A stretch of DNA of 64,000 bases from Sphagnum compactum (Eukaryota), in contig OZ234493.1 in assembly GCA_965153455.1 (NCBI GenBank), positions 2,976,001-3,040,000 of the forward strand. The letters are read 5' to 3'. This document shows positions 8,451 through 62,400 of this stretch, piece after piece; positions within the stretch are counted from its first letter, which is position 1; every line of letters begins with the position of its first letter. The notes under the pieces are model-generated. The model was not told the origin of the DNA, did not search any database, and worked only from the letters and a program-made list of their open reading frames with translations. A program made the translations under genes and the position numbers.

Positions 8451-8630
8451 CAAGCAAGCAAGGAAGGACTAGTGTGTACAACAACAATTGGACATCACAA
8501 TTCTCGTTCTAAGAACTTGGTGAAGCTTCTAAGACTTCCGGGGAAAAAGAAAGAAACAAGTCTAGATCTAAACAATCAAATCCTTCCTTCAAGATCTGCA
8601 GCAGCAATCTTTTCTACAATCTTGAATCGC

Positions 8631-8810
8631 ATTCCCAAAGCTTGTTTGCACACAAGAAAAATTCGCCACAAAGAAGAGAATTCCACACAAAGCTTGTTTG
8701 CACACGAGAAAAATTCGCCACAAAAAGAAGAGAATTCCACACAAAGCTTGTTTGCACACAAGAAAAAATTCGCCACGAAAAGAAGAGAATTCCACACAAA
8801 GCTTGTTTGC
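8631..8810. repeat. Tandem repeat, ~3.3 x 52-55 bp, ending 17 bp before the HEN1 ATG
   Basis: Units start at 8637, 8689, 8743 and 8798: aaagcttgtttgcacac(a/g)agaaaaattcgccac...aagaagagaattccacac. Confidence 0.9.
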
Positions 8811-8827
8811 TCAAGAACTTCTGGAAT

Positions 8828-29815: not shown

Positions 29816-32800
29816 ATGGCGTGTAATCTGAGAGCTCGATCAGTGTTACTAGTGTTGGAAGTTGTGGTCATTTTGCAGGCTTGCCACTCCTGTATGGGAT
29901 TAAGGCAAGTCCTTTCCGCTGGACAGAGCCTTTCTCATGCGGGCTCATCAACATTGCACAATAGCTGGCCCGAGTCTACACGGTCCCCAGATGATCAGTC
30001 TGAGGTGTCCACCGAAGATTCATCTGCTGTCCTTAAGGTACATAACGAAGTGTGGCAGCTGGTTTTGTTAGGAGCTTTCAGAAATGGATATGAAACTGCT
30101 AGTCAATTGTCGAAAGTGATCTCTTGCAGATCGAGCCTTCATGTACTTTTGACTTTTGCAGGTCTTGAGAACACCATTGATACACAGAGACCATCCAGAT
30201 TCGCCATTGTCAAAGGCAGCTTACAACACTAGCTCGTATTCTGAAAGGTTAGCCGCGGCTGTGAAAAGGAGCTTAGCTTGTCGGGATTACGTCTCTCGTC
30301 GATTGATGAGCTCGACCTTCGAAGGAGGATTCGAAAGCCAGGTGATACCGGACGAAACGTATGTTCAGTACGGGTTGCTGACTGAGTACACGATGGCGCT
30401 GTCAATTGGCACACCTCCGCAGCGATTCTTTGTTTTAATTGATACCGGAAGCGACTTGTTATGGCTGAATTGCAAGCCTTGCAACCAATGCATCATTCAT
30501 CCTTTTGGGTCCCCATTTGATCCCAGCTTGTCCTCATCTTACAGAAACATATCGTGCACTGACAACTTTTGCAAGGTACGCGAAATGCATCTAACGAGAA
30601 ACTTTTGCCCCACATCATCCACCTGGTTTGATCTTGAGATTGGCTCAGCATATCTATCGAGGATTATTAGCTGCAAATTAGGAAAACGACCTCCTCAAGA
30701 GATCAAATTTTCCTTAAAATCGATCTCAATTTGACAACCATCCTCCAGATGGTAATTCATCATTTGTGTAACGTTACACGGATGCTAGTTTGATATTCAA
30801 CTTCATGTACTTGGCAAGGTTTTTTTTTTGAATCTCTGCACACCAGTGATCCTGATATGAAAACTTCTCAGTACTTAGTCTCCTAAAGCACCGCGAGAAA
30901 TTTCTTGGTGTATTTGAAGGCTACCTTAAAAAGGAAAGATTCACTCCTGTCCAGGGAACCATCTTACCTTCCTCAACGAGGAACCTTGCGTTTTAAAATG
31001 TTTCTGTACCAAATGTAAGCTTCCTTCCTATTGTGTTTTTCTAGTGGTGCTTTACGATTGGAAAGGCCCTAGGACAAGGCCGTAACCAGAATACGAGTAC
31101 CACCCTCAGCTGCTGCCTCTGACAGTACCCTTATTCTGGTAAAGCCCTCGTTGTCCAAGGGCCTTACCTACGACACAATATCAGGGCTACCCAAGGTGAC
31201 AGCCAAGGTCCTGGACTGTCACCTCTGGTGGTATCCTTGTTCCCGTAATGCCCTCATTCTGGGGACTTACCTACCGTGAGATGTTGGGGCCATCTGACTA
31301 GCTCTAATTATGCCCAATGATGTGAGCCCCTGAGCTAATAACAAACTCATCTATCATGTTCTCTTCATCAGGTTCTTATTGACCACCCCAACGTTGCTGG
31401 AGTTGGGAGTTGCGAAGACTCTAAATGTAAATACTCTATTGCATACGATCCGCCTATTACCACCCAAGGCAATGTGGCGTCCGAGACGCTCACAGTCACG
31501 AACATAGACGGATGGTCCACTTCCATTCGAAATGTTTTATTTGGTTGTGGGCATAACCAATCCAATTTCTTCTTTGGAGCAGACGGAATCCTGGGTCTTG
31601 GCAGAAGTCCAATCTCTCTACCTAGCCAGCTGCGGAACATCTATCCAGAGATTTTCTCCTACTGCTTGGTGCCCTTTAGCTATTCCACCACCAATACGAG
31701 CACCTTCTTCTTGGGAAGCCCACAAGGCTTCAAACTCCATCGCCACTTGGTCTACACACCCATCGTCAACCAAACGTTTTCTCCACATTATTACGTGGGC
31801 CTCAGAGGAATCAGCGTGAACGGTACCTTGTTAAATATCCCACCAGACACTTTCCACATCAACAAAACAACTCATGCGGGTGGCGTCTTGTGGGACTCTG
31901 GCGGCGCATTTACCTTCCTCAACACTGTTGCTTACACTGCTGTGTCCCAGGTTAGTGTCCTCATCCGCTCTTGCTCAAACAGATTTCAAGGATTGGGCTG
32001 GCTAACTTACTTACGAAATTAATCAGAAAAGTGGATGCTCACTGCTGAACACAGGTAGTAAGTAGCCTGTAGGTGTTTGGTTCTCTCCAATACATTGCTT
32101 CCAGTTCAAAGGAAAATTGCATCACCAAATCTTACTTACAAAGACACAAGAAAAAGTGCATTCATGTCCTTTGAGCAGAATTGGAATATGGATGGATTTT
32201 TTTCAAGAACCTGATGTGAACTGGACCAAAGGTTCCATTTTTCTGTGGACCTGGAACGGTCCTAATTCTTTTTAAAGAACTGGAGGTTCTTCAAAACAGT
32301 CAAGAACCACCCAACACTGGTTTATACATGATAGCTAACCACTTTGGTATTAACCTCCTCTGACACAGGAACACAAGGAAATGGTGTTTCACGTCTACAC
32401 CTCATCTATACTGCACAATGTGCTGGTGTGTCCTGGTTTTCTCTGGCCAGGGAAGCTCTACAATTGCATCCATTTTACAATGGACAATTGAGATCAAAAG
32501 TGCATAGGACTAAGTAAATAAAAGGACTGATTCCATGTAAAATGATTGCAGGAACTTCAGAGGCTGATAACTTTACCACAAGTCAACCACACTGTAGATA
32601 ACATATTTCCACTGTGCTTCAACCTGACAAAGGGTTCAATTCACGACTTTCCAACCATTAGATTCCACTTCATAGATGCAAGTGGTAATGGAACTGTACA
32701 CTTTGTGCTGGCTCCAGAGAATTACATATCTTTGTACTTGGAGCCCCCTACATATTGTCTCACTATATTACCCAGTGCTGAGAATGGACTGCTTGTGAAT

Positions 32801-43062: not shown

Positions 43063-44987
43063 AATCAAAGGTGAAAAGTAAACTCCAAGATGCCCGTTAC
43101 AAATGTAAGGCGCAAACCTAGGAAGTTCCGGAGACTAAGCAATATGTGCATATCAGAAAAAGGATAGGAATTTGAAATCAGTGTGTCAAAGTCAAAGGTG
43201 AATATATTAAAGTCCAAGGTGAACATTTTGTCGCACAGCCTGCGAAACTTGTGGCTTGATCTCTGGAATTTCTTTCTTAGGTTTATCCTTTCAGTTAAGT
43301 TTCCCTTTCAATTTTGGCTAACTGTTCTGAAGTTCCTATCCTCTTTGGATATTTGACAGTCCCTTGTAACTTGAGGCTTGTTCACAGGAATTTCATAAAT
43401 TTTCTGCTCATACTTGAAGCAGGCTATAGTGTCAGTATCCCAAAAGGATAGGAATGTTATAGACTAGTAGTATTCAACACCATAGATGACCTTCAGCCAA
43501 AATAGTTTTATTAATGGAAAGAAGACCCAAGCTCAAGGTGCCCATGATGGCAAAAGTGTAAGGTAGAAAAGCCCAATGCCGCAGGGTTTTACTGGAATAA
43601 AGCCGGTGTGAGGTGTGGCCAACTGCAGGCCTAATTCCTGTTGTATGTATGAGGATAAACCAAGGAAATTCGTGAGATGAAGCTGCAAGTTACATGAGGC
43701 TGTATGTAGTATAAGGGCCGCATTACATGAGGGTCTGATGTCCAAGGTCCAATGAAATAGAGCAATACTATTGGCTGAGAGTCAATAATTGGGCCTGTGG
43801 CCTTTAGATGAGGGTTCAAGACCAAAAATTGGCCAATTGAAGCTAAACCTACATGGCACCATTTTTGGAGGGAAAATTAATTGGTTTGGACCCAAAAAAA
43901 GGAGCTCAAAGGAGAGCTCATGATTTGGAGAATGAAGGTGGAAACTAGGGTCCAACTTGCTTCAAATGAGTCCAAATTGGTTCCTAAGACTTTGAACCCT
44001 GGACCCCATCTAGTGGGCCTACGTTTCCAGATGGGACAAGAATGTTAGAGAGGTATGTCAAAATCAAAGGCTAAAACTAAACTTAAAATGTGAACATTAG
44101 GGTGCAAAGCCCACACATGTGCGGCTTGTGATCAGAAACAAATGTCAAATTCAAGTTGCAAACCTGCAGCGAGTTGCAATTTGAGATTCCACAAAGTATT
44201 CAAACACCATAGATGGACGGCAACCAAAAAAGTCTTGTTAGTGAAAAGGAGACGCAACCTCAAGGTGCACATGATGGCAAAAGTATAAGGAAAAAAGCCC
44301 AATGCCAGGGGCTTTACTCGAATAAGGCCCACGGGAGACAGGGCCAACTGCAGGCCCAATTCAGGTAACAGCCGATGGCTGAGTGCCATACTTAGCATAG
44401 AGACCCGCTCAAAAGTTTTCTTTCTTCCAAAAAATCAGAAAAATATGCATCATTTTTCAGAAAACAGAATGCCCACTATGGCAGGCATTAAAATTTTTGG
44501 AAGACCCCACAAGCAGCAGAGGAAAAAATCTGCTCAGTAAATTCCTTCAAATTACAGTGACAAAATCTCAGCAGATCTTCAGGCCGGAGCTAACATTTAT
44601 ACCTTTATCTTCAATCCTAAGAGGTACTTATCCATATGAATTGTCTGAGGAGCAAAAGAGGCCAGTGTTCTTAAGAAGAATGTAATCAGTTTGGGTGTCC
44701 TATTCTTGTACTTTTTTTGTGTTTGTTTCTTAGGTGGAACAGGAACTTCACTTTGACCTAATGGAGTGCTGCCAAGCGAGAACAGAAAGTGCCCTAATAG
44801 TCAGGTCACTATTGGTTCACTACACCATGAACAGGATGAACAAAGGAGATTAGGTAGGGAGTGTAATCTATTCTTCAAAATAGAAGTGTTTTGTTTGTTT
44901 TGGTTCTTTGTTTTGCAAGCTATGAATGTAGAATGGGAGTGCGAGCACTTGGTTTACAGTTAGTTCTTGGTGTTGTGTGGTGTGAGG
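43063..44987 (-). repeat. Dispersed repeat copy 2, inverted relative to 16041-17657, with ~330 extra bp (about 44632-44962)
   Basis: Reverse-complement match; the terminal gttcttggtgttgtgtggtgtgag matches 16041-16064. Confidence 0.9.
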
Positions 44988-45765
44988 ATTTCAAGGATTG
45001 GGCTGGCTAACTGAGGAAATTAATCAGACAAGTGGATGCTCATTGCTGAACACAGGTAGTAAGTAGCCTGTAAGGTGTTTGGTTCTCACCAATACATTGC
45101 TTCCACTTCCAAGGAAAATTGTTTATCATCAAATCTTACTTACAAAGAGACAAGAAGTAGGTAAGGCACCTGGTGGCTAATAGGTAGTGAGATATATGTG
45201 GCATGTTGATAGCATATAGTGCTGGGCGGTTGCCTGGTTTGGCCAGTTGCAACTTCTAGTTCTGGTTTTGGTTAGTAAAAACTAAACTGGAATCAGGGCT
45301 GATTTTGGATCCAGTCATGGAATCAGAACCAAAATCAAAATGAGAATTTTTGAAAAAAATAAAATTTGGGAAAAAAAATCTGGAACCAGGGGCTAACAGA
45401 AGCATAACCCACAGTTAACCATCAGTACCAGACCGAGTTACCCAGAATCAAACCAAAATTAGATCTGTTTTCTAGAACCAAAACCAGAATTGGAACATGG
45501 ATTGATTGGATATAACCAGAACCGGATGGGAACTGGACCCAAGGTTGCATGTTTCTGTGGACCTGGAACCATTCTAATTCTTTTTAAATGGTTCTTCATA
45601 AAAGTCAAGAACCACCCAACACTAGTTTATACATACAGTAGCTAACCACTATGTATCAACCCCTTATGAGAGGAAATGGTGAAATGGTGTTTCATGTCTA
45701 CACCTCATCTGTACTGCACAATGTGCTGGTGTGTGCTGGTTGTCTTTGGCCAGGGAAAACTTACA
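44988..45765 (+). pseudogene. Orphan copy of intron 3 of the aspartic protease gene (relic of a paralogue)
   Basis: 44988-45155 matches 31982-32152 and 45530-45760 matches 32218-32455; no adjacent exons remain. Confidence 0.8.
45218..45623. mobile_element. MITE-like element rich in GGTTCT/AGAACC motifs
   Basis: TIR agtgctgggcggtt / aaccacccaacact; related ends at ~32307 and ~19790. Confidence 0.5.
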
Positions 45766-46068: not shown

Positions 46069-47961
46069 TATGTTGTTTTCTTTGAGATTAAGCTAGTTTT
46101 CAATAAAAGCTTTCCCTTAAATACCTAATTCAAGGATTTAATCCTCACTTGCTTAGCTGATTTAATGTTTATCCACCCTAATTTCTTCCAAAATTTCAAT
46201 GAACTAAAAACATAAGTGATTGATTAAATCTCCCCTTGAATGATAATTTCATAATTGTTCTTTGTGTGAATGAAAAGAGGGATCTTAGGTGTACTTATCA
46301 AGGTGGGATTGTGACCTAAACGGAATCCTAAACTTAAAAAAGGTTAAATTTTCTGTCCTAAACTGGCGGTTGGTGGTGCGATGTGACTGTTCATGAGCAC
46401 ACTCATCATGTGCTGCTCAAAATAGTGTGTTTGTTTGCTTTGTACAAAGGTTTCAGGTTGTGCATCCATGGAGGAAAGAGAATGTGGTTGCCTTGTTTCT
46501 CCTGATTTCAAGGATGAGCTTGCTAGTTCTATTGTTTTGGTTTTTGTTCTTCATGATGCCTTGTGGGATCAAGGTTCTGATTGGTGGACTAGATCGTCGA
46601 AGGATGATGAGCTGCTACTATTTGAAGGAGGTGGTTGGTTTTTGGAAGACAAAAGACAACCTAAGTATTTTATGGCTAAATTATGTTTGTAGCAGAGGAT
46701 AGAACTGTGATAGAACCGGTGTAAGTTGAACTGCATGGAGATGAATGCTCTATGTGCTAATGTTCTCCGCAATTTTGTTGCGTTGCAGATACAGAATTCT
46801 ACGTAGTAAGTTTGTTATAGGCTGGTGGTGAAAATGCTGTAGAATATTAGAGGATTTGTGAGTGACTTCCTTCATGGCGTTGTATCAAGTGAGATGAAAT
46901 TGGGGAGTTGGGATGAGTGGAAGGGAGTGCCTTGGTTGGCGCTCTGAGTTTGGGATCTGCAACCAGTCCACTGATTCGGGGTTTGGACAAAAATTATTGA
47001 ATGTTCGGTTCTTCAGGGATTGGGATGATGCTGGGATTCTTTCCTTGTGAAAACTTCGGGGATTCAATGAGTGAGAGTTTGAAGCAATGCCATAATGTAG
47101 TCGGTTGATGCTCAATGAGAATGATTCCAGAATGTTCAGATTAACCTAAGCCTTAAGGTTCAAAAGTAGATATTGTGTAGTTTAGTTTCAGGAATAGATT
47201 TGTGTGTCAGTAAGTATGGACCATGGTTCAAGTAACTGAAAGAAAGCGTTGTGATTCCAATTTACCCCCTCTTTTTTGGCCACAGGATCCTTCTGGAATG
47301 TATTTCCAGGAGGAATAACATTCATATGCCCTCCAGATTAGGAAATTTATTTAAGAGCTTCACGCTAACTAGAAGCCAATAGCAGTCGATAACAAGCCAG
47401 TTTGTCCTAGTGTAGACTTTTAGAGCCACTAAAATGAGCACTCACATCCAATTTAATTTAGTGGCTGGGATAATATTCCAATATCCACAATTACATGCAT
47501 AAATGCAGCTGAGAGATAAACAGCTGGTGCAAGTTTCACATATCAATTACCAGCACAACTGGATCAGGAGAGACCAATTTCCCCATAGAGCAAACAGTTT
47601 ATGCAAGTAGGGCCACCCCGCGGTAGGGAGCTGATGGGCGCTGCAACTTGTATGTCGTTTTCGTTAGGAATCCAGACTCGAGTAGATCTGAGTTCATACT
47701 TAGGGAGTTTTAAGCCACCCACACACATAACATTACAATTGAGTGCCTCATGAAAGTCCTGGCCAGCTTGAGGTTTATGAACCCAATTTGATTTGTACTA
47801 AAGTAGACTAGTCATGAATTTGTAGCAGGGACACTAGCAAAATTGCTCCAGGGTGAAAGGGTCAACTGAATTTGACATTGGTCACAGGAATTGAAAGCTT
47901 TTATGAAGCGCAGCTAAGTAATCAGGCAGCGGCAGTGGAGACTCCAGGCTAAGGATAGGAA

Positions 47962-48477
47962 ATGGGGTCTCTGAGAGCTGGAGCAGTTTTAGTAGCTATA
48001 TTGGATGTTGTGGTCATCTTGCAGGCTTGCCACTCCTGCATGGGATTAAGGCAAGTCCTTTCCACTGGACAGAGACATGCTCATGCGGGCTCATCAACAT
48101 TGCAAAATAGCTGGAAGTCTACACGATCCCAGATCAGTCTGAGACATCCACCGAAGATTTGCCAGCTGACATTAAGGTACATAACGAAGTAGTCGCTGGT
48201 TTTATTAGGAGCGTGCAGAAATGGATATGAATCTGGTTGTTAATTGTCGAATGTCTCATGCAGATCGAGCCTTCATGTCCTTTTGGCTTTTGCAGGTCTT
48301 GAGAACACCAATGATTCACAGAGACCATCCAGATTCGCCATTGCCGAAGGCTTACAACACTAGCTCGTATTCTGAAAGGGTAGAGGCAGTAGCGCAAAAG
48401 GAGTTTGGCTCGTGGGGATTACTTACACTCTCGTCAATTGATGAGCTCCAGTGCAGGAGGAATCAAAAGCCAGGTGA
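47962..48477 (+). pseudogene. 5' fragment of an aspartic protease paralogue (exon 1 frameshifted, exon 2 from 48296 truncated by Copia)
   Basis: VVVILQACHSCMGLRQVLS and VLRTPMIHRDHPDSP match the 29816 gene; homology stops at aagccaggtga|TGGACAAAG. Confidence 0.9.
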
Positions 48478-48896
48478 TGGACAAAGAAAAGGAATCACAC
48501 TACAAAGCTTAATCTTGCTAAAAACTATACTAAAATGGATTAGTGACTCAAAACTAGTTCCTATAGAGAGATGGATCAATGATTCTGAGATGATCTAATG
48601 GGAACTTGCGATGTGCTTATATGCACATGGAGGATCGCTCAAAGATAAGGCTAGTAACTGCTAGTAGGTGGAAATAGTTGCCATGCAACAAGGGTAATCC
48701 AGAATAAAGTGCACATGGGTGTTTAATTAATGCATTAATGAAAGTGTAACGAATTCAATTCGGTGCACATGCCACCATTTCTGATTTATTGTGATAGCGT
48801 GGAAATGAATGAGACTACTAAAATTAACTCGAACGCTAATTTGTCGCTACTGTTTAGTGCTCCCATTAAAGTAGCTTGACTACATGCTACCTACAC
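48478..48896 (-). mobile_element. Probable 3' LTR of the minus-strand Copia element
   Basis: Removing the Gypsy insertion joins this segment to the Copia RNase H end: AAAATGAGAG|TGTAGG...TATAA...TGTCCA (PPT-like tract, TG...CA). Confidence 0.55.
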
Positions 48897-49235
48897 TGTC
48901 ATGACCATATGTGTGTTAGCTATAACATATAGTGTGATATGGTAGCGAGTAGTGCCTACTTAGGCTTTCTAGGTTTAGGGTTAGAGGAGAGTGGTTGTTC
49001 TGGTAGGACCCACCCTCATGTTGTGAGTGGGGGTATAAAGTGTGTGAGAGGGCTCAAAGAACATAGTTCTTTGAGTTGAACCTAGAGCGTTGGGAGTAGT
49101 TGGAATTAGTGGAGCTTTGAGCTATGGTGTCCCGTTAGCATCAACTTAGATTCTCTGAGTGGAGTGGGCTTGGCTTGACTATATGTTTTTGCATCACGAG
49201 TTTTATGATAGTAGATCTTTCTCGTGACGTTTTCA
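48897..49235 (+). repeat. LTR segment A1 (333 bp + TTTTCA), with TATA box at 49034
   Basis: Matches 58955-59293 with roughly 22 mismatches by eye; TGTCATGA...TC(A/G)TGAC(A/G). Confidence 0.92.
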
Positions 49236-49251
49236 CTCAAAGAACTATGTT
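49235..49251 (+). promoter_or_regulatory. Primer-binding site complementary to the element's own LTR (49060-49076); putative self-priming PBS
   Basis: ACTCAAAGAACTATGTT is the exact reverse complement of AACATAGTTCTTTGAGT; there is no TGG tRNA-type PBS. Confidence 0.75.
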
Positions 49252-50231
49252 TTTTGGGAGTAGTTAAACCGTGGGGGTTTTGTGATCTCACTCTCTGGTT
49301 GTGTGGTCGAATTGGGAGTGGGTGGTGTCAAAAGGAGCGCCTTGGCGAGAGCTTTTCAACGCACCAAAGATTGTTGGATTTCGTTGAACGGATCAAAAGT
49401 TATGATCATTTGAAGTTGCTAGTTTAGGGTTTGACAGTTTTTGTTGACGGTTTACCAGCGACGTTAATTTCTCAGATAAGTGGAAATTTCCTTGAAGAAA
49501 GTTGCTGAAAATTGGTAGGAGTGTAGCTAGAGAGCCGATCTACAATCTAGCAAAGACAGATTGTGTTTTCATTGAGCGGTTTATGCGTTATGTTTGTTTT
49601 TGTGGTGATGGTTTTTTCTGGTTTGTGCACACCTAGTGCGGAAGCGTTGTCGGATTTTTAACTAAATAACTAGGGAAGATCATGTGCTGCAATTTTGTAA
49701 AGTTGTTGCTTGAGGGCTGAATTGCATTTGGGAATTGTTTGGGATTTTTTTGGTGGAGCCAATTGAGAGTATTGACCTTCGAAAGATCTCAAGTTTGTGT
49801 AGATTTATGCCCAGGTTTCTTTCAACGGTTTTTCGTAGGTCATATCTTGGCACACAAACCTTCTTTTCAGTTGAGTTTTGGAGGGAAGGAAAATCTAGTT
49901 GTCCTCTACATTCTGGTCGAAGTAAATTGGCATTTGGTGTAGGAACGGTGGAGATATGGTTGTTTGAATGTTCGCAACCCAATTTCGCAAGTTTTGGTTA
50001 TGGCGGATTAGGGATTTCGCCGGAAATTGAGCTTTTGGCTAGTGGGGAGCACATTTTTCGACTTGTTGTGGTGGGCCGGTTGGATGAGTTGAGCCGCTAC
50101 TCAACTAAGTGGTTGAGTTGAGTATTCATTTCTGGTAGCAAATCGAGCATAAGGTCGACGATATTTAGTGGTGATTCAATTTGGGTACTGGGTTTGGTGA
50201 TTGGGTCATCACGGAGTAGTTTGGTGGTCCT

Positions 50232-52630
50232 ATGGGGGACCATGGTGGAGATGGTGGAGTTAAATGTAGTGGGTTGAGGTATCGACTACCTTCCCCCACA
50301 TCATCGGTTGTTGAAGAGGATGAAGTTATCGTGAATAACAAGTCTTCCATATTACCGTCTAGTATTGCGGCCCCATTGATTTGGGATATGGACAGGGGTT
50401 CTGGGGCCATGAAGGGCCCCCAACGTTACTCAGGTGCAGTGGGCACCATCGAGTTGGAGGACTTCATTCAGGAGTTTGATTCTTGGTGTGATATGCAGAT
50501 GTTACATAACGCCAGATTGTTCTCACCCTTCTTGGCATGGAAGGGATTGTTTCAGCACTTGGAGGGTCCTCCGATGGATGATTATCATGAGTTTCGGAGA
50601 GATCATGCTACTGAGATTGAGGAGTGGAGGCAGCATTGGTCTCCATCCTATGTATCTATTACTCACGGTGGTGTTGTTAGTGGTGATACTACTACACCGT
50701 CTACTCCTAGTACGAGCACACAGGTTGTTCCCCCACCTCCGTTTAACCCTATCACGGAGTTCTTTTTGAGGCTGAAGAAGAACTACCAGGGGGTGAAGAC
50801 GGAGAAGTTGAAGAGTCTTCAGGAATTTGAGCGGAAGACTAGTGAGAGTCTTCACGAGGCATACACTCGTATGCGACGGTTGATTGTAGTTACCCAGGGG
50901 GTGACGGAGGCTCAAGCAGTCCAATTTTGGTATGGGATTCTGGACAAGGAGTTGCGACGGAGAGCACGCGATGTGACTCTCATGAGTGACGATTCTCCCA
51001 CATTGGCCCATGTGTTTGCTTTGTCTGAGAAGATAGAGCTTAACATGGTGGAGGAGAGGGTGGTGACATCTGGATTCAATAGGGATATAGTTACTACTTC
51101 TCGTGGACAACAGTCCACCTCACAACCTCATACTGGTGGAGGTGGGAGTCGTGGAGGTCAGGTACGACCTCAATCAGGTTCTGGAGGGACGAGTGCACAA
51201 AGACCGTTGCCTTCATTCGCTAGTCAACAGCAGGGACAATCTTGTTGGACATGTGGTGGTGCTCATATTTGGAGGGATTGTCCACAGGAGAGTGGTGGGC
51301 GGACTTTGGCTGATGGATTTTAATCTGCACAAGTTCAATGTGATAACTGTGGCCGGGTCGGCCACCCTCGTGAACATTGTTTTGACCTTTACCCATAATT
51401 GAGATTAGGTCGTGGTGGAGCGACTCAAAGAGGTCGTGGTGGTAGAGGTGGTAAAGGTGGTGGGGGTGGTAGAGGTACACCGACGGTTAGGGCACCTCTC
51501 GTGATCACTCCTCCCCCTACGACAGAGGCAGCTATGGCTGCTAGGATTAAGCAGTTGGAGCAAAGGTTTGCTACCATGGCAAGTTTCCAGCATCGATCAC
51601 ATTCAAGAAGTGAGGCTCCCACATCTTATGGGGGAGATGATCTCTTTTATATGGCTAGTGTAGCACAAATTGAGGCGTCCGTTGCAGTGACGAGAAGCGT
51701 CACTCGAGCCTCGGAGCCACGTGGGGCAACTATGGAGTTGGATCCACAGAGGGATGAAGCTGGTAGACAGGCCAGGCTTCCCCAATCATTCTTGTTGTCT
51801 GAAGTGGTTAGGACTCCTTCCATGGTTCCTACACCGCCTATTGAGCCAACAGTGGGGCCAACAGCATCGACATCACATGTAGTGGACACGGATGTATCAT
51901 CGAGTGCAGTCTCGCGGATGGTGACTTCAATGTTGGGATCCCCAACATTTTCGGCTAATGATTTGATGGCGTCAGGAGTTGACTTAACTCGTGTATTTCG
52001 ACTAGCAGCCATATTGTGTGAACGTGGGAGTGTTGTTGCTATAAGTGCCGAGGTGTGTGAGGGTGTTGATGTGGGGCAACTTGTGGCGGGGGATGTTGTT
52101 GTGGAGCAACTCGTGGTATCAGGTGTGGATAGTCCTTGGCAGGCGACGGCGGCTAAGATGGATGCATTACCAGCTCGACCGGCCATTGATCGTGAGAGGC
52201 TTACACCTGGTGTATGTATGTTGGATAATCGAAGTGGTATTTTCTGGTTGGTGAGTCCTACGGGCCAGGTGTATAGACCAGATCGGGTTTTGTTGGATTT
52301 TGGTGCCGAACCCTTGATGTTGGGGAAGGCAGCATGTATTGGTTTGGGTATTCGGAGGTCAGAGCTTGAGTCGTGCCCATTCCAAATTCAGACATCACTT
52401 GGTGGAGCTAGTGATAGGTCTAACTTCATGACACGTGAGAAATTGTCGGTGCAAATGAAACCTGATCATGTGACAGATAGTTCTAGGTTGGGAGTGACTG
52501 CTGTTATTACAACAGCTGAGTCGTATGATGTACTAGTTGGAGGTGTCGTGTTGTATCCAATGGGTTTTCAGATGGATTATTAGACAGAGACAACGACTTA
52601 TCGACCCGGTTGGCAGTCTGGGGATGGACG
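50232..52630 (+). pseudogene. Gag (two zinc knuckles, RGG-rich) plus retropepsin-like protease of the Gypsy element
   Basis: One frame broken by single stops. Motifs: QxxxESLxxxxxR-like gag motif, CWTCGGAHIWRDC, CDNCGRVGHPREHC (51339-51380), VLLDFGA...YDVLVG. Confidence 0.8.
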
Positions 52631-53019
52631 GATGAGCCAGGTGCGTGTGAGATTTATTTCTGGGGTTCGACCAGGAGGGTCTCCCCCAGAGGTGTTGGCA
52701 TCAGTTCCTGGTTTTAGTGGAGTGGTCACTTGGCCAGGTGACTTGTTGGAGGGCAACATTTCAACCATTGACACTTCGGTTTACGAGGATATAGAGGAGG
52801 TTTCTAGTTTTGTTGCAGTAGTGTCCTCCTCATTGGATGTTCCACTTTGGTGTTCGAATGGGGTGTTACGGCAGGATGTCGATCGTTTGGTATCACAAGC
52901 TTGGCGTGAGGCTTTTGTGCATGTGGAGGAGGAGGAGGTTCCACAACGGACTCCTATTTCTGGTCCTGTTGGGTTGTCTCCATTGGATACTACACCCATT
53001 GCGTGGGAATATCCTTCCG

Positions 53020-53975
53020 AGGGTATTTACGTGTTGGATCTATTTGGTGGGATCAGCACTGGTTTGGCAACAGTGCTTCAAGCAAGTATTCTAGTTCGGA
53101 AGTACCTTTACGTGGAGATAAATGAGACCGCGAGGAGGGTTTCATCGCGCCATCTTGCATTATGATGCAGTGATATCCTGAGTTGTTGCCAAGGTCGATT
53201 ATTCGAGGATATCAGCGGGCTTTGCCATCAAACATTGCATTGTTGGGGGCTCAAGACCTTGCGAGAGTTGGTCCTATTAATTTGGTGATTGCTAGATGGC
53301 CATGCTAGGGTCATACTCGGGCTGGTCGTGGTGAGGGATTACGTGACCCTCGATCTCGTATGTTTTGGGAGATGTTGCGCCATCTTCAGACACATCAGGC
53401 ACGTGTTCCCACGTACATTCTGGAGAATGTACCTTTGTTGGGTGATACTAGGTCTCATGTGATGGCAAGTGTACACCAAATCCGGTCTTGGATTGGACCA
53501 GCGGTTTTATTGGATGCAGCGAGGGTTGGTTCGCGTGCTCATCGTCCCCGATTGTCGTGGACGAACTTGTTGCCGAGGGAGGTGTTGAAACGGGCATATG
53601 AGACAATACCACAATCTTCTCACCTCATAGTGGATAGTATCTTAGATATCGGGCGACGTTCTCAGGTGGTGAAAGTTGTTGGTAGGTCACCCATGGCAGT
53701 GGTGAACCGAATGGGACAGCCTAGGATGGCGTTACCCACATTTGTTAGTTTTCCAGCATCACATGCCTGTAGAGAGGGTGGTCCCGGGCTTGTATGGGAT
53801 AGTTGTTTGCAGCAATTGGTGGAGCCCAACGCCGATGAAAGAGAGCGTGCAATGGGGTTTCCTACAGGAGTGACATTTGTCCCTTCTATTTCCGAGGCTT
53901 CACGTCGACAAGTGTTGGGTCAAGCTATGGACCTGAATTGTTTGACTTGGATTGTTAGCCTTGGTATGGCTGAGT
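53020..53975 (+). pseudogene. DNMT3-like DNA (cytosine-5) methyltransferase domain inside pol
   Basis: Motif I VLDLFGGISTG (53031), II YLYVEIN, IV LVIARWPC*G (Cys at 53303), VI ILENV, VIII AHRPRLSWTNL, IX ERERAMGFP, X RRQVLGQAMD; one frameshift (~53162) and two stops. Confidence 0.9.
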
Positions 53976-54299
53976 AGCGTCGGCTCTAAGCCACATTTGT
54001 AGTAGTTACACCTCTTGTGAGCTCGCTGTCCACTGTGACGGTAGAAGCATCGACTAGGGGCGAGGAGAGTTGTACTTTTCATCCTTGGAGTACATGGGAT
54101 GTGTTGGGAGAGCATGTGAAGGTTGTGGCCCATGCTGTTGGAAGAGTTTGTTGCTCCATTGGTGTTCCATTGGGTGACTTGGAGGAGCGTGTGGCTATTC
54201 CCAAGGTTTTTGCATAGCAACCTATGGCGTCGTCCTCTTCCTTTAATGTGTCTATCGAAGAGACTTGGGAGCCTTTGATGGGGCCCAAGCTAACAAGAG

Positions 54300-56726
54300 G
54301 AGAGAGGCGACGGTTGATGCAATTCCTAAGAGCTTACAGGAGTTGTTTTGCCTTTAGTATGAAAGAGTTGGGTGCTTTGATTGAACCTGGTATACGGATT
54401 GAGTTGGCTAGTGACACGCCAATCTTCCGTCGTCCTTATAGATATAGTGATATGGAGAGGGTCCTGATTCGGAGTCGGACGTTTTTCTATTGGAGGTTGG
54501 ATTAGTGGAATTGTTGCATGGTGAGTATGCATCAGCCACTGTCATGCCTACCAAAAAGGATGTACATGGCAACTACACGAATAGGCGGATGTGTGGAGAC
54601 TAACGTCTTATCAATCGGCAGACTAAGTCCGATAAGTATGCCATGCCTACACCTGAAGAAATCTTTAATGTTGTGGGACATGCGAAGGTTTTTAGTACAC
54701 TTGATCTTCGAGCAGGGTACCATCAATTGCCGATTTGAGAGGAGGACAAGGCCAAGACCGCATTTTGGGGCGTCAACTCTCACGGCAAGGATTGTTTGTA
54801 TCAGTGGAAGTTCTTACCCTTTGGGTTGAAAAACGCGCCTGCCGAGTTTCAACGTGTGATGGATAGGATCTTAGCAGGGTTGGATTTTTCCAGTGTTATA
54901 TCGATGATATTGTGTAGTGATACCGTGGAAGAGCACCAAATTCATCTACAAATTGTGTTTGAGCGGCTGAAGGCTCATGGTCTTCGTCTACATCCTGGGA
55001 AGTGTAAGTTCTTCCAAGAGAGTGTGGAGTATCTGGGTCATGTGATCTACCCAGGTGGTTTGGGAATGCAACAAGCCAAGGTGGAGGCTATTGCACATAT
55101 TCTGCATCCCACGGATGTGAGTAGGGTTCGTGTTTTCATGGGATTGACGAACTACTATCGCAGGTATGTCAAAGGCTTTAGTGCGATGGCAAAGCCTTTG
55201 AACATGTTGAAGTTGGATCAGGAGTGGCAGTGGGGTGATGAGCAGGAGCGAGCTTTTGTGGAGCTCAAGGCTAGGTTAGTTGCAGCTCCCATCTTGAGGA
55301 GGCCTATTAGGGGGCGTTCATTCCAGCTACACACTGATTGGAGTATGTTGGGACTTGGAGCAGTGTTGACACAGTGTGATGATGAAGGGAAGCAGTTTGT
55401 GGTGGGCCGGTTGGACGAATTGAGCCGCTACTCAGCTAGGTGGTTGAGTTGAGTATTCGTTTCTGGTAGCAAATCGGGCACGAGGTCGACGGTATTTAGT
55501 GGTGATTCAATTTGGGTACTGGGTTTGGTGATTGGGTCATCACGGAGTAGTTTGGTGGTCTTATGGGGGACCATGGTGGAGATGGTGGAATTACACGTAG
55601 TGGGTTGAGGTATCGACTACCTTCCCCCACATCATCGGTTGTTGAAGAGGATGAGGTTATTTGAGTGAAAATGTCATGAGAAAGATCTACTATCATAAAA
55701 CTCGTGATGCAAACACATACAGTCAAGCCAAGCCCACTCCACCCAGAGAATCTAGGCCGATGCTAACGGGACACCATAGCTCGAAGCTCCACTAACTCCT
55801 ATTCCCAACACTCTAGGCTCAACTCAAAGAACTATGTTCTTTGAGCCCTCTCTCACACTTTATAGCCCCACTCACAACATGAGGGTGGGTCTTACCAGAA
55901 GAGCCACTCTCCTCTAACCCTAAACCTAGAAACCCTAAGTAGGCACTACTCGCTACCATAGCACACTATATGTTATAGCTAACACACATATGGTCATGAC
56001 AGCTGTCGTGCGAATACATATCGTCATACAACATACATCGCTGACATACCATACTCACATACACACACAAACACATAACATGGACGAAAGCATACACAAA
56101 TACATGTGTACCACATGTGATGGCAAAGCCTTTGAACATGTTGTTGAAGTTGGATCAGGAATGGCAGTGGGGTGATGAGCAGGAGCGAACTCTTGTGGAG
56201 CTCAAGGCTAGGTTAGTTGCAGCTCCCATCTTGAGGAGGCCTATTAGGGGGCGTCCATTCAAGCTACACACTGATTGGAGTCTGTTGGGACTTGGAGCGG
56301 TGTTGACACAGTGTGATGATGAAGGGAAGGAGTTTGTGGTGGCCTATGCAAGTCGTTCGAACAATGTAGCGAAGTCACGTTATAGTTCTTACAAGGGAGA
56401 GTGTTTGGCAGCGGTGTGGGCTGTTGCACACTTCAGGTGTTACTTGTTTGGCACACAGTTTACCCTTGTCATTGATCACCAGCCGCTCAAGTGGTTGATG
56501 GAGTCCGATAAACTTACAGGAAAGCTTGCACGGTGGGCTCTCATCTTACAGGAGTATGACTTCCAGGTGGTGCATAAACCTGGAGTTACAAACCTTGATG
56601 CCGATGGGTTGAGTCGGAACCCATACACTAGCCAGGAAGATAATACTGGAGCTAGATGGCATGGCGAGGTTGATGAGGAGATGGTGCCAGGTTGGCATGC
56701 ATCGGCCTTTTTGTGCTTGTTGGGTG
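54300..56726 (+). pseudogene. Reverse transcriptase and RNase H of the Gypsy element, interrupted by an internal rearrangement (55397-56115)
   Basis: RRPYR, YAMP, FSTLDLRAGYHQ, LPFGLKNAPAEFQR, YIDD (54897), KCKF..YLGH, LHTDWS..GLGAVLTQ, AYASR, DHQPL, ADGLSR. Confidence 0.93.
55666..56115 (-). repeat. Inverted complete LTR (B-GC-A-TTTTCA), followed on its own strand by the first bases of the PBS
   Basis: Reverse complement of 58841-59293; begins exactly at TGTGG. Confidence 0.9.
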
Positions 56727-57134
56727 ATCTAATTAAGTTTGATCACATCACAATATGCAAACACCCTAATCAAAAGTTTGATATGTCATGACGAGCATCT
56801 AATCCAAATGCATTTAAGAAAGCTTTTGTCCAAAGTCCTACATATTCCAATGTGCATGACCAAAATCATGGTTCATCTTTTCCATCTTCTTTTTCTCTCT
56901 TTTGGAAACATGATCTTTTGATTTGATTGTTAGTAATGGAGCTTGCGGAGCTTTGGGCACCATTTGAGATTGTTAGCTTGAAATCTAAAACCTTTGTAAA
57001 AAAAGCTATAGGCAATGGATCTTGCAACAACAAGCTCTCTCACAACTACCACAAGTTGTTTTGAAGCAAAAACAATTATTTAAGACCTTGCATTTGTTGC
57101 AAAACAACACTGCAAACCCCTAAACCCAACCCCA
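56727..57134. other. AT-rich foreign insertion between RNase H and integrase
   Basis: Abrupt composition shift that breaks the pol frame; ends in aaacccctaaacccaacccc. Confidence 0.6.
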
Positions 57135-57425
57135 GGACTCTAGTATGGAGGGCCACGTGACATCTTACTCTAGTCAAAGGGTAGATGGCCAGTTTTCAGA
57201 TCCTGAGGTTGGGGATGGTAGCATCGGTCACCATGATGTTCATGATGATAAATAGTGTTGGAGTTTTTACAAACCAGTATGGTGTCAGGCATGGTGAGTG
57301 CTAAGGAGAGAGACCGTGTTCTCCAACGAGCTAAGAGGTATCGGTTGGAGGGGACACATATACTCCGAGTGTGGGAGGATGGTAGGGTACGGACTGTACC
57401 ACATCCAGACTAGAGAAGGCGTATT

Positions 57426-58685
57426 GTGCGGCATGCCCATGAGGAGTTGGGGCATTTTGGAGTAAAGCGGACATATAGCTTACTCCTAGGTCAGTATTGG
57501 TGGCGCGGTATGCACACCGATGTGCAACGATTAGTGTCACATTGCATGGTTTGTGATAGGGTGAGGGCATCGTTCAATGCCCCTACACCACAGTTACACC
57601 CCTTGCCTATTATGGGGTTGGGTTATCGCTGGAGTTTGGACTTTGCGAGACCATTACCATTGACGGTACGGCACAACAAATATGTGTTGGTGATGGTGGA
57701 GCACTTCTCCAAGTGGATTGAGTTGGTGCCATCCCCTGACAAATCCAGCAAGGGAGTAGCGTATGCATTCCTTGATAGGTTGCTTAGTCATTTTGGTGCA
57801 CCAGCTGAAGTGTTGACCGATCAAGGTACGAAGTTTCAGGGTGAGTTTCAGGTCTTGTGTGACAAGGCGTTGATTGATCACCGAACCACGTCTCGAGATC
57901 ATCCAGAGGCAGATGGTTTAGCTGAGCGTGTGGTACAAACGGTGAAAAGGGCATTACGCAAATATGGCTTGCAGAAAGGCCACCTAGGGGATTGGGATAT
58001 TCAATCACCATGGTTGGCCATGGGATATCGATTCAATCGTCAGGCATCCTTGGCTTCCTTCTCACCTTATTTTCTATTGTACGGCCGAGATCCAGACTTG
58101 CCAACAACGATTCGTCGTGAGTCTAGTGAGGTGGTGAACCTTGATGACCCGAAAATGTGGTTGAGGGTGTGTTCTCAACGTGCAGAGCTCTTTCGAAGAG
58201 TTATGCCAGCAGCGTTTGAAAACCTTGCCATTGCTCAACATAGGGATACATTGCGATATGCGATTATCCGGGGTGGAGGTTATGGACCATCGATCCGTGG
58301 GTTCCATGTGGGGGACTATGTCTATTTGCAGCAGACTGCACCAACGACATTGGATGTAACGGCAGGCCGCACTATCTTACGAGTGCGAGAGGTGTTAGCT
58401 TCTGGAGTTCTCATGTTGGAGGGTCACGATGGTGTTGTTTGGAAGGACCATGTGTGTAATTGTGCGCCATGTCACCTCCCAAATGTGGATGGTACAGTTG
58501 ACCCAAGTTTGGTAATGGTACGGGTCGGCTTGAGGTGTATGTTATGTGGGTCTAAAGGTGGAGCAGCCCATATGTTGGTGTGTGATAGATGTTCTAGGGG
58601 TTGGCACATGGCATGCATGACTCCACCTATGGATGTTGTTCCCGTTGGACGGTGGGTTTGTCGTCGTTGTACTTTGGAGGGGTAG
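57426..58685 (+). CDS. Gypsy DDE integrase (HHCC, core, SH3-like) with a C-terminal PHD finger (58536-58670); open fragment of a dead polyprotein
   Basis: HEELGHFG...CMVC; WSLDF, LTDQG, GLAER; FHVGDYVYL; CMLC...CDRC...WHMAC...WVCRRC (C4HC3). Confidence 0.9.
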   Translation: MRHAHEELGHFGVKRTYSLLLGQYWWRGMHTDVQRLVSHCMVCDRVRASFNAPTPQLHPLPIMGLGYRWSLDFARPLPLTVRHNKYVLVMVEHFSKWIELVPSPDKSSKGVAYAFLDRLLSHFGAPAEVLTDQGTKFQGEFQVLCDKALIDHRTTSRDHPEADGLAERVVQTVKRALRKYGLQKGHLGDWDIQSPWLAMGYRFNRQASLASFSPYFLLYGRDPDLPTTIRRESSEVVNLDDPKMWLRVCSQRAELFRRVMPAAFENLAIAQHRDTLRYAIIRGGGYGPSIRGFHVGDYVYLQQTAPTTLDVTAGRTILRVREVLASGVLMLEGHDGVVWKDHVCNCAPCHLPNVDGTVDPSLVMVRVGLRCMLCGSKGGAAHMLVCDRCSRGWHMACMTPPMDVVPVGRWVCRRCTLEG

Positions 58686-58840
58686 ATGACATGGTATGGA
58701 TTACAGATGGGCGACTAACGATGGGGCAACATAGCACCCGGCCTTTTGATTCGTGCACCCGCGAAGGTGTATAACATGTAGAAGATGTATAGGGCTACCT
58801 GGAAGTTAGAGGGACCTAACCACCAGCTAGGGGGGCAAGT

Positions 58841-59407
58841 TGTGGTACACATGTATTTGTGTATGCTCTCGTCCATGTTATGTGTTTATGTGTGTATGTG
58901 AGTATGGTATGTCAGCGATGTATGTTGTATGACGATATGTATTCGCACGACAGCTGTCATGACCATATGTGTGTTAGCTATAACATATAGTGTGCTATGG
59001 TAGCAAGTAGTGCCTACTTAGGGTTTCTAGGTTTAGGGTTAGAGGAGAGTGGCTCTTATGGTAGGACCCACCCTTATGTTGTGAATGGGGGTATAAAGTG
59101 TGAGAGAGGGCTCAAAGAACATAGTTCTTTGAGTTGAGCCTAGAGCGTTGGGAGTAATTAGAATTAGTGGAGCTTCGAGCTATGGTGTCCCGTTAGCATC
59201 GGCCTAGATTCTCTGGGTGGAGTGGGCTTGGCTTGACTTTATGTGTTTGCATCACGAGTTTTATGAAAGTAGATCTTTCTCATGACATTTTCAGTTGTGG
59301 TACACATGTATTTGTGTATGCTCTCGTCCATGTTATGTGTTTGTGTGTGTATGTGAGTATGGTATGTCAACGATGTATGTTGTATGACGATATGTATTCG
59401 CACGATA
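58841..59407 (+). repeat. 3' repeats: PPT, B1 (58841-58952), GC, A2 (58955-59293), GT, B2 (59296-59407)
   Basis: Polypurine tract AGGGGGGCAA-GT just before TGTGGTACAC; B is repeated after A. Confidence 0.9.
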
Positions 59408-59410
59408 ACA

Positions 59411-62400
59411 CTCTCATTTTGTCAAGGTACTCTTGAAGAATCAAGCCTAGGAGTTGTTACATGCACTTGAAGTGCTTTGGTGCAAGAACAGGCTTTGTTA
59501 GGGCATCAGTGTCCATGTCTAATGTGGAACAATTTTGAAAAGAGACTTCTTTTGCATTCATCATCTCCCTGACAAAGTGGTGTTGTATGTCCATATGTTT
59601 AGTTCGCTTGTGGTGAACAAGGTTTTTGATTAATGCTAGATTTCCTTGGTTGTCATTAAAGGTTATTGTAGCATCCTTTGTGGAAAACCCAACTCCTATA
59701 GCAACTTTCTAAGCCACATGGCTTCTTTAGTGGCAAATGAAGCTACCATGTATTATGTTTTCATCGATGAGAGGGCCACAATTGGTTGCTTCTTACTCAC
59801 CCAATTTACAACTCCCAGTACAAATGCAAACCAAGTTGTGGACTTCCTAAAGTCTAAATCTCCACCCCAATATGATTCTGAAAAACCCTTGAAGGTTATT
59901 CCCTCTTCATCTCCTCAATATTGTAACCACAAATCTTGCGTTCTTTGAAGGTATTGAAAGATTCTCTTGGCAGCTACCTAGTGTTTTCTAAAGGGGTCTA
60001 ACATGAATTGACTAATTATGCTCATTGATTTAGAAAAATATGGTTTAGTAGCAACCATTACATACATAAGGTTACCCACAAGTTCCTTGTATGGCATGTC
60101 CATCATCTCTTAGATTTCCTATAAGGTTTTTGGTGTAATATTTTTGCCCAGTTTACTAATGGTTTCTAAAAGCGTCACTATTACAAAAGTGGAGTGTAAT
60201 TCACTAGCCTAAATCACTATTGGACCTTAAAAATGAAATAAGCTCACTGCACTTTAGTGATTTCACCTTGGTTAAAGTTATTTCATATCACATTGTGTTT
60301 CATTATTGATTGACATTATTCACTATTATAATTTACTGTGATAAATAAATTTATTTTTATGTTATTGTTTTGAATACCTTGTGTTATTTTATGATATACC
60401 TTATATTATTTTAAGTTATTTTAGTTATTCTAACTTATACTCTAACTTATTATAAGTTATTATAGGCTATAATAAATTATTATACCTTAAACTATTATAC
60501 ATTATTATACTTTAAGGTATCCTAGTTAGTTTATTATAAAAATTTTACTTCAAATTATTTTAAATTAAATTATTCAACTAACCTTAGGCTATACCTTAAA
60601 TTATTTTATTTTAAATTAATATATGTTATTTCAAATTATAATTTATGTTATTATAAAGTATTTTATCCTAAGTATAACAATTTCAAATAATCTAAAATAT
60701 AATATAATGACCTAAGGTAAAATAACCAAAAATAACCACCAATATAATAACCATCAATAAAATATATAAGCACTAATAAAATAGTCACTAATAGCCACTA
60801 ATAGAATAACCAACAATAGCTGCAAAACCAATAGTCATAAATAGTTTATGTTAATATAGCCTAAAATAACCAATAATAGCATAAGGTGAAAAAACTTTCA
60901 ATAGCAAAAAACAACCAACAATAACTCTACATAGCCAAAAATAGCCTAAGATGAAATAGCTTAGAATAGCCAAAAATAACTTGGAATAACTGCAAATAAC
61001 CTAAAGTGAAATAGCCTATAATAGCAAAAAATAACATCAAAAGTAACTTACAATATTCAGATATAATCTAAGGTTTAATAGCTTAAAATAGTCCAAAATA
61101 ACATAAAATAACCAAAAATAACTAAAGGTGAAATAACTAAAAATAATTAAAAATAACTAATAATAACCATAAACAGTTGTGAGATAACTTAGAATAATGA
61201 AAAGTAACCCTAAAATAGTTGAAAGTAGCTTAACATAGGTAGTATTATTATATTAGCAAAAACATTTATCCATTTATTAAACATTTTGTTTTTCAAAAAA
61301 AAATTCATTGAAATGTTATTGAATAATGATTTTCACAAAAAAAAATTGTGCAAATGATTTTACATTTTTAAAAGGAAATAAATGTAATTATGTACATTAT
61401 TGAAAAAAAAATTAAATTAAACTTTAATCATTTCATTTGGACAAAATCTAAATAAGATATGAATTTTCAAAGTTTATGTTTTTGTAATGTTTAAAATGAA
61501 ATATTTGATAAATAGAACGCAGCATAACACATTATCACAATAATTGTGGTGCCTTGATTGTAGGGGTGTTTGCCTTCATCCTAGAGGTCAAAAGATCAAA
61601 CCTCACAAATGGTGTATTTATGGTCAATAATGATAAGTTGACCAAATATTTTCCTATGTAGTTCCCTAAAGTAGGTGCCTAGTTAAATTGATTACATGGC
61701 CTATGTACCTAGGCTAAATTTTAAACCTAGCATAGGTAATGACACATGTCAATAATTCATAGGATGAAAATCATAAAAATATCAATAATATTAAATATAA
61801 CACTAAGTATTAAATCATTTAAATTTAATTGATATCCATGCTACTTAGTTAATTAACTAGCAAGTAAAATGGTTTGATAAATTTGTATTTCACTAGGTGT
61901 TAGTGGACTAATTCACTGTCTTTGACAACTAGTCTTCATCCAATTGGGGGTTGACCAATTTCACCCTGGTAAAAATGTCCAAATTCGCTCAAAATCTAAT
62001 GAAACCTAAAATGAACTAAAATGCATTTTGTTGTAGAGTGTAGACATAGGTTTACAACTTTCCATGCCGAACCACTTAAAAATTTTGTTGATGTATTTTG
62101 GCTGACCAAGCTTAATGGTTCTACGCTACTAATCTCTCGTTACTTAGATCCCAAGAAAAAATGCAAGATCCCCTAAGTCTTTCATTTTAAACTCCTGTGA
62201 CAGAAATGTTTTCACTCTTTCAACTGTTGCGATCTCCTAGTTAAAAATCAATAAGTCATCTATGTATAATGCTAAGAATGATGACTCTTGGTTTTTCAAG
62301 TAATAAATACTAGGATTTGTTTGACATTTTTTGAATCCTAGATTGAAAAGGAAAAAATCCATTGTTTCACTCCTTTTGGTTTTTTCTAGAACAAAATCTT

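Follow-up and report, generated by a model that had tools for sequence, protein, structure and literature searches.

Permuted termini derived from an internal palindrome in the family of a decayed Ty3/Gypsy element of Sphagnum compactum

Split direct repeats of the order A1-B1-A2-B2 are described for PAT, TOC1, Ngaro and VIPER, elements which encode a tyrosine recombinase (PMC4157794). KnitGypsy-Dnmt3 of Klebsormidium nitens combines Gypsy domains and a polyprotein cytosine methyltransferase with a DIRS-type repeat arrangement, A-coding-B-A-B (PMC5890265, Fig. 4 legend), and the available part of that paper gives no palindrome, target-site duplication (TSD), primer type or mechanism. In this work, we analyzed an element with the layout A-internal-B-A-B, located at 48893-59411 of a 64,000-nucleotide stretch of Sphagnum compactum (assembly GCA_965153455.1, contig OZ234493.1, positions 2,976,001 to 3,040,000), hereafter the window. 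It shares with KnitGypsy-Dnmt3 a methyltransferase in the polyprotein region and a DIRS-like layout together with Gypsy domains, and with PAT, TOC1, Ngaro and VIPER the order of the repeats, differing from the latter in its DDE (Asp-Asp-Glu) integrase, primer site, polypurine tract and 4-bp TSDs. The original prediction for this locus stated that split repeats typify recombinase elements and not Gypsy, to which KnitGypsy-Dnmt3 is one published exception (PMC5890265). The name Klebsormidium was absent among the matches listed (120 of 341 and 120 of 167 relatives), most of which are unnamed.

To our knowledge, no well-studied long terminal repeat (LTR) element inserts through an internal palindrome as its normal route. 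The integrase of prototype foamy virus cleaves a palindrome situated where the LTRs meet in 2-LTR circles, with the loss of 2 nt (PMC1180852); as proposed here for the window element, one cut of a palindrome with a 2-nt center provides both processed ends. However, the foamy virus palindrome is formed by joining the ends of the complementary DNA (cDNA) and the provirus carries two full LTRs, whereas in the window element the palindrome is encoded inside the LTR, and the end-to-end join is a separate, variable site left internally. Whether joined LTR ends or circles serve as integration precursors has long been disputed for retroviruses, with one report in favor (PMC1180852) and another calling circles a dead end (PMC5314604). 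The self-priming chromoviruses Tcn1 and Tf1-Sushi carry a chromodomain and two full LTRs (PMC6317226, PMC2864245, PMC11042837); they resemble the window element in predicted self-priming, a moss-type host and a primer-site overhang on the cDNA, the latter being retained in Tf1 (PMC11042837), while the PHD finger and the split ends of the window element set it apart. Gypsy-7a_cRei of Chlamydomonas reinhardtii, active in laboratory strains, has a PHD finger and a left LTR that lacks the last 8 bp of the right one (PMC9940879), and is a lead only, likened to the window element by its description as a Gypsy with a PHD finger and unequal LTRs. Troyka, which is restricted to animals and has paired LTRs, CG...CG termini and a 3-bp TSD (PMC12440569), resembles the window element only as an LTR lineage with unusual ends. 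No mechanism for split-repeat Gypsy elements was found in the literature searched, whose coverage left out most subscription journals and Repbase Reports, and the available part of bioRxiv 10.64898/2026.05.21.726589 makes no mention of split repeats. The split-repeat layout of Gypsy elements is already known but unexplained; the family-wide ends and a testable mechanism are presented below.

Termini of inserted copies across the family

In this family, the left boundary of an inserted copy is the TG half of a CA-GC-TG site and the right boundary its CA half; the central GC is lost and the TSDs are 4 bp long. The window element follows this pattern, and its architecture, with ACAC at either edge, was recovered directly from the window sequence:

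48893..48896, unstranded: left TSD, ACAC (from the sequence; 4-bp TSDs in 8 of 12 family copies)
48897..49235, plus: A1, the left terminal repeat (3' part of U3, R and U5), starting with TGTCATGA at the TG half of the palindrome
49034, plus: TATAAA within A1 (from the sequence)
49065..49075, plus: predicted 11-nt self-primer, complementary to the conserved primer-site positions (RNA 5' end inferred)
49236..49246, plus: primer-binding site of the self-priming type, adjoining A1 (from conservation across 24 copies)
58829..58840, plus: polypurine tract AG6 and 5 plus-strand-start bases, CAAGT here and CGAGT in most copies (from the sequence and family copies)
58841..58952, plus: B1, the first 112 bp of the cDNA LTR (from repeat comparison)
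58946..58961, unstranded: internal att-like palindrome CACGACA-GC-TGTCATG, source of both element termini (from the sequence; conserved in distant relatives)
58953..58954: GC spacer between B1 and A2 (from the sequence)
58955..59293, plus: A2, ending in TTTTCA (from repeat comparison)
59288..59300, plus: A2/B2 join TTTTCA-GT-TGTGG, the most frequent of several join forms (from family comparison)
59294..59295: GT spacer between A2 and B2 (from the sequence)
59296..59407, plus: B2, the right terminal repeat, ending in CACGATA, the CA half of the palindrome with a C>T change here (from repeat comparison)
59408..59411, unstranded: right TSD, ACAC (from the sequence)

The coordinates and layout originally proposed all hold on re-examination, as does the full LTR, B-GC-A ending in TTTTCA, which is bounded by the primer site and the polypurine tract.

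The family was sampled in metagenome assemblies by an exact 26-nt search with the start of A, which recovered 104 loci. Among 106 matches to the A start, 83 adjoin unrelated DNA, in 49 distinct left flanks with no strong base preference, and the other 23 come after B. On the opposite side, 30 of 32 B copies situated 3' of A have an intact end, providing 20 distinct right flanks, all of which begin directly past the final ACA. Twelve distinct short copies are complete with both ends: eight have a perfect 4-bp TSD, one matches at three of four positions and three do not match, while none of the 12 fits a TSD of 3, 5 or 6 bp, and only 3 of 132 non-self pairings match. A 5-bp TSD (ACACT), permitted by the window sequence alone, was rejected since the family favors 4 bp (8/12 versus 0/12). 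Further, contigs were examined in four runs, three of DNA (X1, X2, X7) and one of RNA (X15), the latter being unable to show RNA ends or prove transcription. Loose contig ends of varied sequence lie behind 58952 in 2, 18, 14 and 5 contigs of the four runs, and before 58955 in 3, 14 and 15 contigs of the DNA runs; none was located at 58841 among the matches listed (24 rows, with 90 more existing). Contigs of the four runs also displayed primer-site bases behind 59293, and joints leading from the A end back to the B start.

The same ends were therefore found in 49 left and 20 right distinct flanks and in four runs, so that permuted ends are the family norm. The original prediction, which derived the termini from an internal CA/TG site with loss of the central GC, left open a family mechanism or a rare accident; the flanks agree with that site and identify a family mechanism. 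Left ends of other copies start at A and right ends finish with the last bases of B, and no clear conventional terminus was found among the loci. A single locus might have a conventional left end (L086); in it, B-GC-A is preceded by unrelated DNA in place of the polypurine tract, with the first two bases of B unmatched, and the sequence is too short to judge. The right ACAC of the window element falls at the end of a minus-strand frame that we take, from its translation and motifs, to be a Copia-like RNase H; an empty Copia site was not found, neither flank having a match among the 104 loci. Two side observations concern individual loci: B2 of one element (L026/L061) is interrupted by a nested conventional LTR-like piece, 800 bp long, with TG...CA ends and a GTACA duplication of 5 bp, and a solo A-B copy stands beside an inverted integrase region of a related Gypsy, 66-72% identical (L006/L025/L056).

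More distant relatives, with 41-66% amino-acid identity, are encoded in seven contigs (L105-L111) assigned to bacterial or archaeal genome bins, of which these contigs are probably eukaryotic contaminants; a search of five host bins found only the relative contigs already known. The B-end pattern had no matches in viral contigs or in prokaryote genomes, and protein scans of viral contigs were also empty. A GACA-GC-TG motif occurs 56-115 nt past a G6-7 tract in all five relatives with more than 800 nt after the open reading frame (ORF), compared with 0.8-6.7% per locus in shuffled sequences; L110 and L111, with too little DNA after the ORF, were left out of this count. As L105 and L106 belong to one family, these five loci represent four families, and their LTRs otherwise share little with the window LTR. 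One relative (L106) displays B-GC-A-B ending at ACGACA with unrelated DNA beyond, and another (L109) ends inside the palindrome. Palindrome-derived ends are thus probably a clade-wide feature, judging from sequences in which the right-hand side is in view and the left ends and TSDs lie outside it. The contig of L105 came out as circular, overlapping itself by 127 nt; we read this as an assembler collapse through A and did not take it as evidence of a DNA circle.

Junctions, self-priming and asymmetry

The two junctions between A and B behave differently. The B/A spacer measures 2 nt in all 14 listed loci (GC in 5, AC in 4, AT in 4 and GT in 1), and the AC, AT and GT forms would fit methyl-C decay of GC. 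Conversely, the A/B joins of 21 distinct loci include 11 of CA-GT-TG type, 2 unclear and 8 other, among which one retains 9 primer-site bases (L010), four retain tract-side GAGT or CGAGT, up to five bases past the G run and never the G run itself (L024, L026, L027, L070), and three carry deletions (L023, L033, L047). In two of the latter (L033, L047), 3-4 nt of microhomology link the B start to points within the 5' region, and TSDs are nonetheless present. Furthermore, B1 and B2 carry the same subfamily allele in 9 of 9 informative loci (five of one type and four of the other; L023 is uninformative), which indicates that B2 is re-copied from B1, while A1 and A2 copies are intermixed on the tree, by which separate A1 and A2 lineages were rejected. 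Since the A/B join is variable and the B1/B2 alleles agree, the A/B junction looks like freshly joined cDNA ends and the B/A junction like the inherited site; the earlier reading of the A2/B2 join as resembling a 2-LTR circle junction is thereby supported. In the window element itself, A1 departs from A2 at 22 of 339 sites and B1 from B2 at 3 of 112, with 14 changes private to A1, 6 to A2 and 7 to an inverted copy described below; the allele at position 262 of A is common to A2 and the inverted copy and occurs in no other of 43 copies.

Positions 1-11 of the primer site have the same base in 20-24 of 24 copies, in comparison with 11/24 at position 12, and these 11 conserved bases are complementary to a stretch about 30 nt past the TATA box, from which we infer that the element probably primes itself as Tf1 does, with no tRNA primer site. 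The self-priming site is also present in two of the distant relatives (L105, L107), and the fold of the whole region is not unusual (z -1.15). Because the primer site and the polypurine tract bound the LTR B-GC-A, the integration ends are offset by 114 bp from those of reverse transcription.

The inserted copies are also asymmetric. A free circle would contain two equal palindromes, and the mirror form (A-B-A-internal-B) would then be expected about half the time; however, B precedes A in none of the 24 distinct loci where the primer site comes after A (P ~6e-8 at 50:50). The cut site is hence chosen before or without a free circle, and the choice is made on linear or nascent cDNA. Of what had been predicted, a 2-LTR circle integrated through an internal site, the internal CA/TG site is supported and the free circle, as stated, is not. 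Among 10 distinct B-A loci with a visible A end, nine continue to B and one folds back (L040/L050). Past A2, this fold-back comprises A2, the complement of the primer site and positions 1-180 of an inverted A, which ends exactly at the inverted A start with unrelated DNA beyond; this suggests priming on the LTR by a primer overhang, and cutting of the end at an inverted palindrome.

Coding region, rearrangement and surroundings

Between the terminal parts, the window element contains the following features, all on the plus strand except where noted:

50220..52583, plus: broken gag/protease-like region, without a Pfam match here (weak protease domain in relative L105)
52869..53971, plus: broken C5 cytosine methyltransferase domain, 5' of the reverse transcriptase (sub-threshold Pfam match to DNA_methylase, E 0.00096; E 1e-36 to 1e-38 against relatives by tblastn)
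54260..55405, plus: broken reverse transcriptase and start of RNase H (from Pfam and comparison with relatives)
55397..55660, plus: duplicate of 50066-50329, its joint with short microhomology (from self-comparison)
55660..56115, minus: inverted B-GC-A and 6 primer-site bases, B-GC-A itself at 55666-56115 (from self-comparison)
56116..56743, plus: repeat of 55182-55405, then the remainder of RNase H (from self-comparison and Pfam)
57252..58685, plus: integrase with zinc finger, rve core (D, D, E; second D to E, 34 residues) and C-terminal PHD finger (from Pfam)

Pfam matches succeed one another as a weak cytosine methyltransferase, reverse transcriptase, RNase H, integrase zinc finger, rve core and PHD finger. 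The integrase is alignable to those of Ty3 and foamy virus, its top match in the Protein Data Bank being Ty3 Gag-Pol, and the catalytic D735, D795 and E830 are unchanged in 24 relatives, which, together with the 8 of 12 TSDs, bears out the DDE integrase with a 4-bp TSD originally described. The order protease, reverse transcriptase, RNase H, integrase fits Ty3/Gypsy, the last three being present in the window and a weak protease match lying ahead of them in L105, and termini TG...CA with a 4-bp TSD agree with Ty3/Gypsy (Metaviridae). Two complete identical LTRs, as usual for Ty3/Gypsy, are not found at the ends of inserted copies, B being absent from all 24 left ends. There was no Pfam match to a tyrosine recombinase in the 16 ORFs of the window element or in the intact relatives L105 and L109, and none to a chromodomain in the window element, whose integrase has the PHD finger at its C-terminus instead. 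Judged by its domains, the window element belongs, as a decayed copy, to a green-lineage Ty3/Gypsy clade with methyltransferase, reverse transcriptase, RNase H, DDE integrase and PHD finger. Named relatives with about 46-50% identity, among the matches listed (120 of 341), are from the green algae Haematococcus, Pleodorina, Volvox and Tetrabaena. The initial guess, a Tcn1 chromovirus, was ruled out by the missing chromodomain match, and Troyka by its CG...CG termini and 3-bp TSD. The position of the methyltransferase differs among relatives, being 5' of the reverse transcriptase in some (P0011, L105) and between RNase H and integrase in others (P0039, P0043, P0061, L109), and some also have a weak G-patch or Tudor match.

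The inverted B-GC-A ends exactly at TGTGG and, with its six primer-site bases, sits between the copy of 50066-50329 and the repeat of 55182-55405. This three-joint rearrangement is peculiar to the window copy, and the protein of an intact relative lacks the inversion; two joints have microhomology, and the third coincides exactly with the conventional CA and has strand-transfer polarity. The order of inverted B-GC-A and primer site would exist in cDNA but not in normal integrated copies, and the inversion may have arisen by one-ended self-insertion or by repair capture. As a single event, it is no proof that chromosomal insertion employs conventional ends; the original caveat that such ends may also be used rests on this internal joint, and the loci gave no clear conventional terminus. 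RNase H and integrase are separated by an unrelated AT-rich stretch of ~415 bp (~56728-57143) bordered on either side by TCTA; its edges also fit the TC...CTAG ends of the Helitron type.

Elsewhere in the window, exons of a HEN1-like small-RNA methyltransferase gene occur at 8513-12398 (dsrm, Hen1_LCD, Hen1_Lam_C and dsRBD2 matches) and aspartyl protease (TAXi) exons at 30153-32022, within 29806-32454. DNA near the latter (29806-32454) is repeated with 82-90% identity at 44987-45757 and 47952-48478, adjoining the insertion site. A 1.6-kb repeat is present as two inverted copies, 92% identical and with an internal 170-bp repeat (16065-17657 and 43063-44632), and an AT-rich array of ~10-bp units occupies 60300-61250, amid the Copia-like region, with a strand bias that flips near 60700.

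Candidate mechanism and rival accounts

With moderate confidence, we favor a route in which the integrase would cut the left palindrome and the true cDNA ends would be joined before or after insertion; all of its enzymatic steps are proposed from the sequences. The RNA would prime itself with its first 11 nt, and reverse transcription would yield an ordinary B-GC-A LTR at either end of the cDNA. The integrase would then bind the left palindrome, in which a pair of ends stands ready, and cut each strand after CA, so that a single reaction would provide both processed ends; cutting after CA on both strands of CA-GC-TG leaves 2-nt 5' overhangs, the form that integrase processing normally makes. 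Insertion into the target would involve the A end together with the short B piece that the cut sets free, and the true cDNA ends would be joined, probably by host end-joining, either before insertion, as a circle with the left site already occupied, or afterwards, as the repair of a break inside the new copy. The left site might be preferred, as a guess, for being double-stranded long before the right one. With marginally more reserve, we also consider it fairly probable that this cycle is obligate, that is, that the integrase never uses the cDNA ends but cuts a junction of LTR-LTR type encoded within the left LTR, and that it depends on end-joining.

Several observations weigh against this reading. 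Four of the 12 short copies lack a perfect TSD, and a few loose contig ends lie off position (58845, 58955 behind, 58957, 58959) in single or triple rows. The search anchored on the A start is blind to A-internal-B copies, and none of the relatives was obtained in full length with its two ends. The CA-GT-TG join, found in 11 of 21 loci with 1 nt of microhomology, is more precise than plain end-joining suggests, and B1-B2 distances average 0.067 within elements, not much less than the 0.079 between elements. As the joint of the inverted copy lies exactly at the conventional TG end, this end may still be reactive. Finally, the evidence consists of inserted copies and contigs; cDNA, circle, transcript end and cleavage were not observed.

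An unlikely, although coherent, account retains the same internal cut and has the integrase itself make the A/B join, the right CA end attacking the left end two bases outside TG, comparable to the way in which IS3-family transposases join their ends. The precision of the join (exactly CA-GT-TG in 11/21), the TG and CA retained at both conventional ends and the inverted copy joined exactly at CA speak for it; however, raggedness is seen in 8 of 21 joins, the L106 join lacks a CA at the end of its A side, and 7 nt are common to the plus-strand start of L105 and its A end plus primer site, as suits joining by microhomology.

Rather unlikely, too, is that the join is inherited, with an RNA that reads through B2 and an unusual reverse transcription that copies A-B-A-B directly. 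Reverse transcription of this sort has been proposed for split-repeat elements with a tyrosine recombinase. One join form dominates, and the layout equals the A1-B1-A2-B2 of PAT and Ngaro (PMC4157794), yet the joins hold tract-side and primer-site bases, the B1/B2 alleles agree at all nine informative loci, and the A1 and A2 copies do not separate on the tree. Moreover, the left end would still need a cut, because the promoter part of A is upstream of the predicted RNA start.

The literal form of the original prediction, a free and symmetric 2-LTR circle cut at either palindrome, appears improbable. A cut at the left site would yield the observed layout and the A/B join resembles a circle junction, but the absence of B in front of all 24 A and primer-site ends speaks against it, and the sole locus in which primer-site bases come after B-A (L040/L050) is a folded-back right end. 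A tyrosine recombinase, own or borrowed, that integrates a circle as in PAT, Ngaro and TOC1 would explain the split direct repeats; it is very improbable given the lack of a recombinase match in the 16 window ORFs or in L105, the 4-bp TSDs, the flanks unlike the palindrome and the invariant catalytic D, D and E. That the window locus is a rare accident or an assembly error can hardly be credited, for although this copy is internally rearranged and its own flank junctions are known from the assembly alone, the same ends recur at 49 and 20 distinct flanks, in independent assemblies and in four runs.

Tools that identify LTR elements by a matching pair of LTRs, as in PMC6317226, will overlook this large clade, which has its own methyltransferase and PHD finger. 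An internal att site that gives both ends in one cut may be of interest to builders of integration tools. Cleavage of the junction seems to have become the standard route of this clade, which makes the reaction testable on a 16-bp site. If the obligate cycle is real, it would constitute a natural junction-first integration by a retroviral-type integrase, the DIRS/Ngaro layout would have been reached by a separate route, and every insertion of this widespread green-lineage Gypsy clade would pass through a circle or a programmed break.

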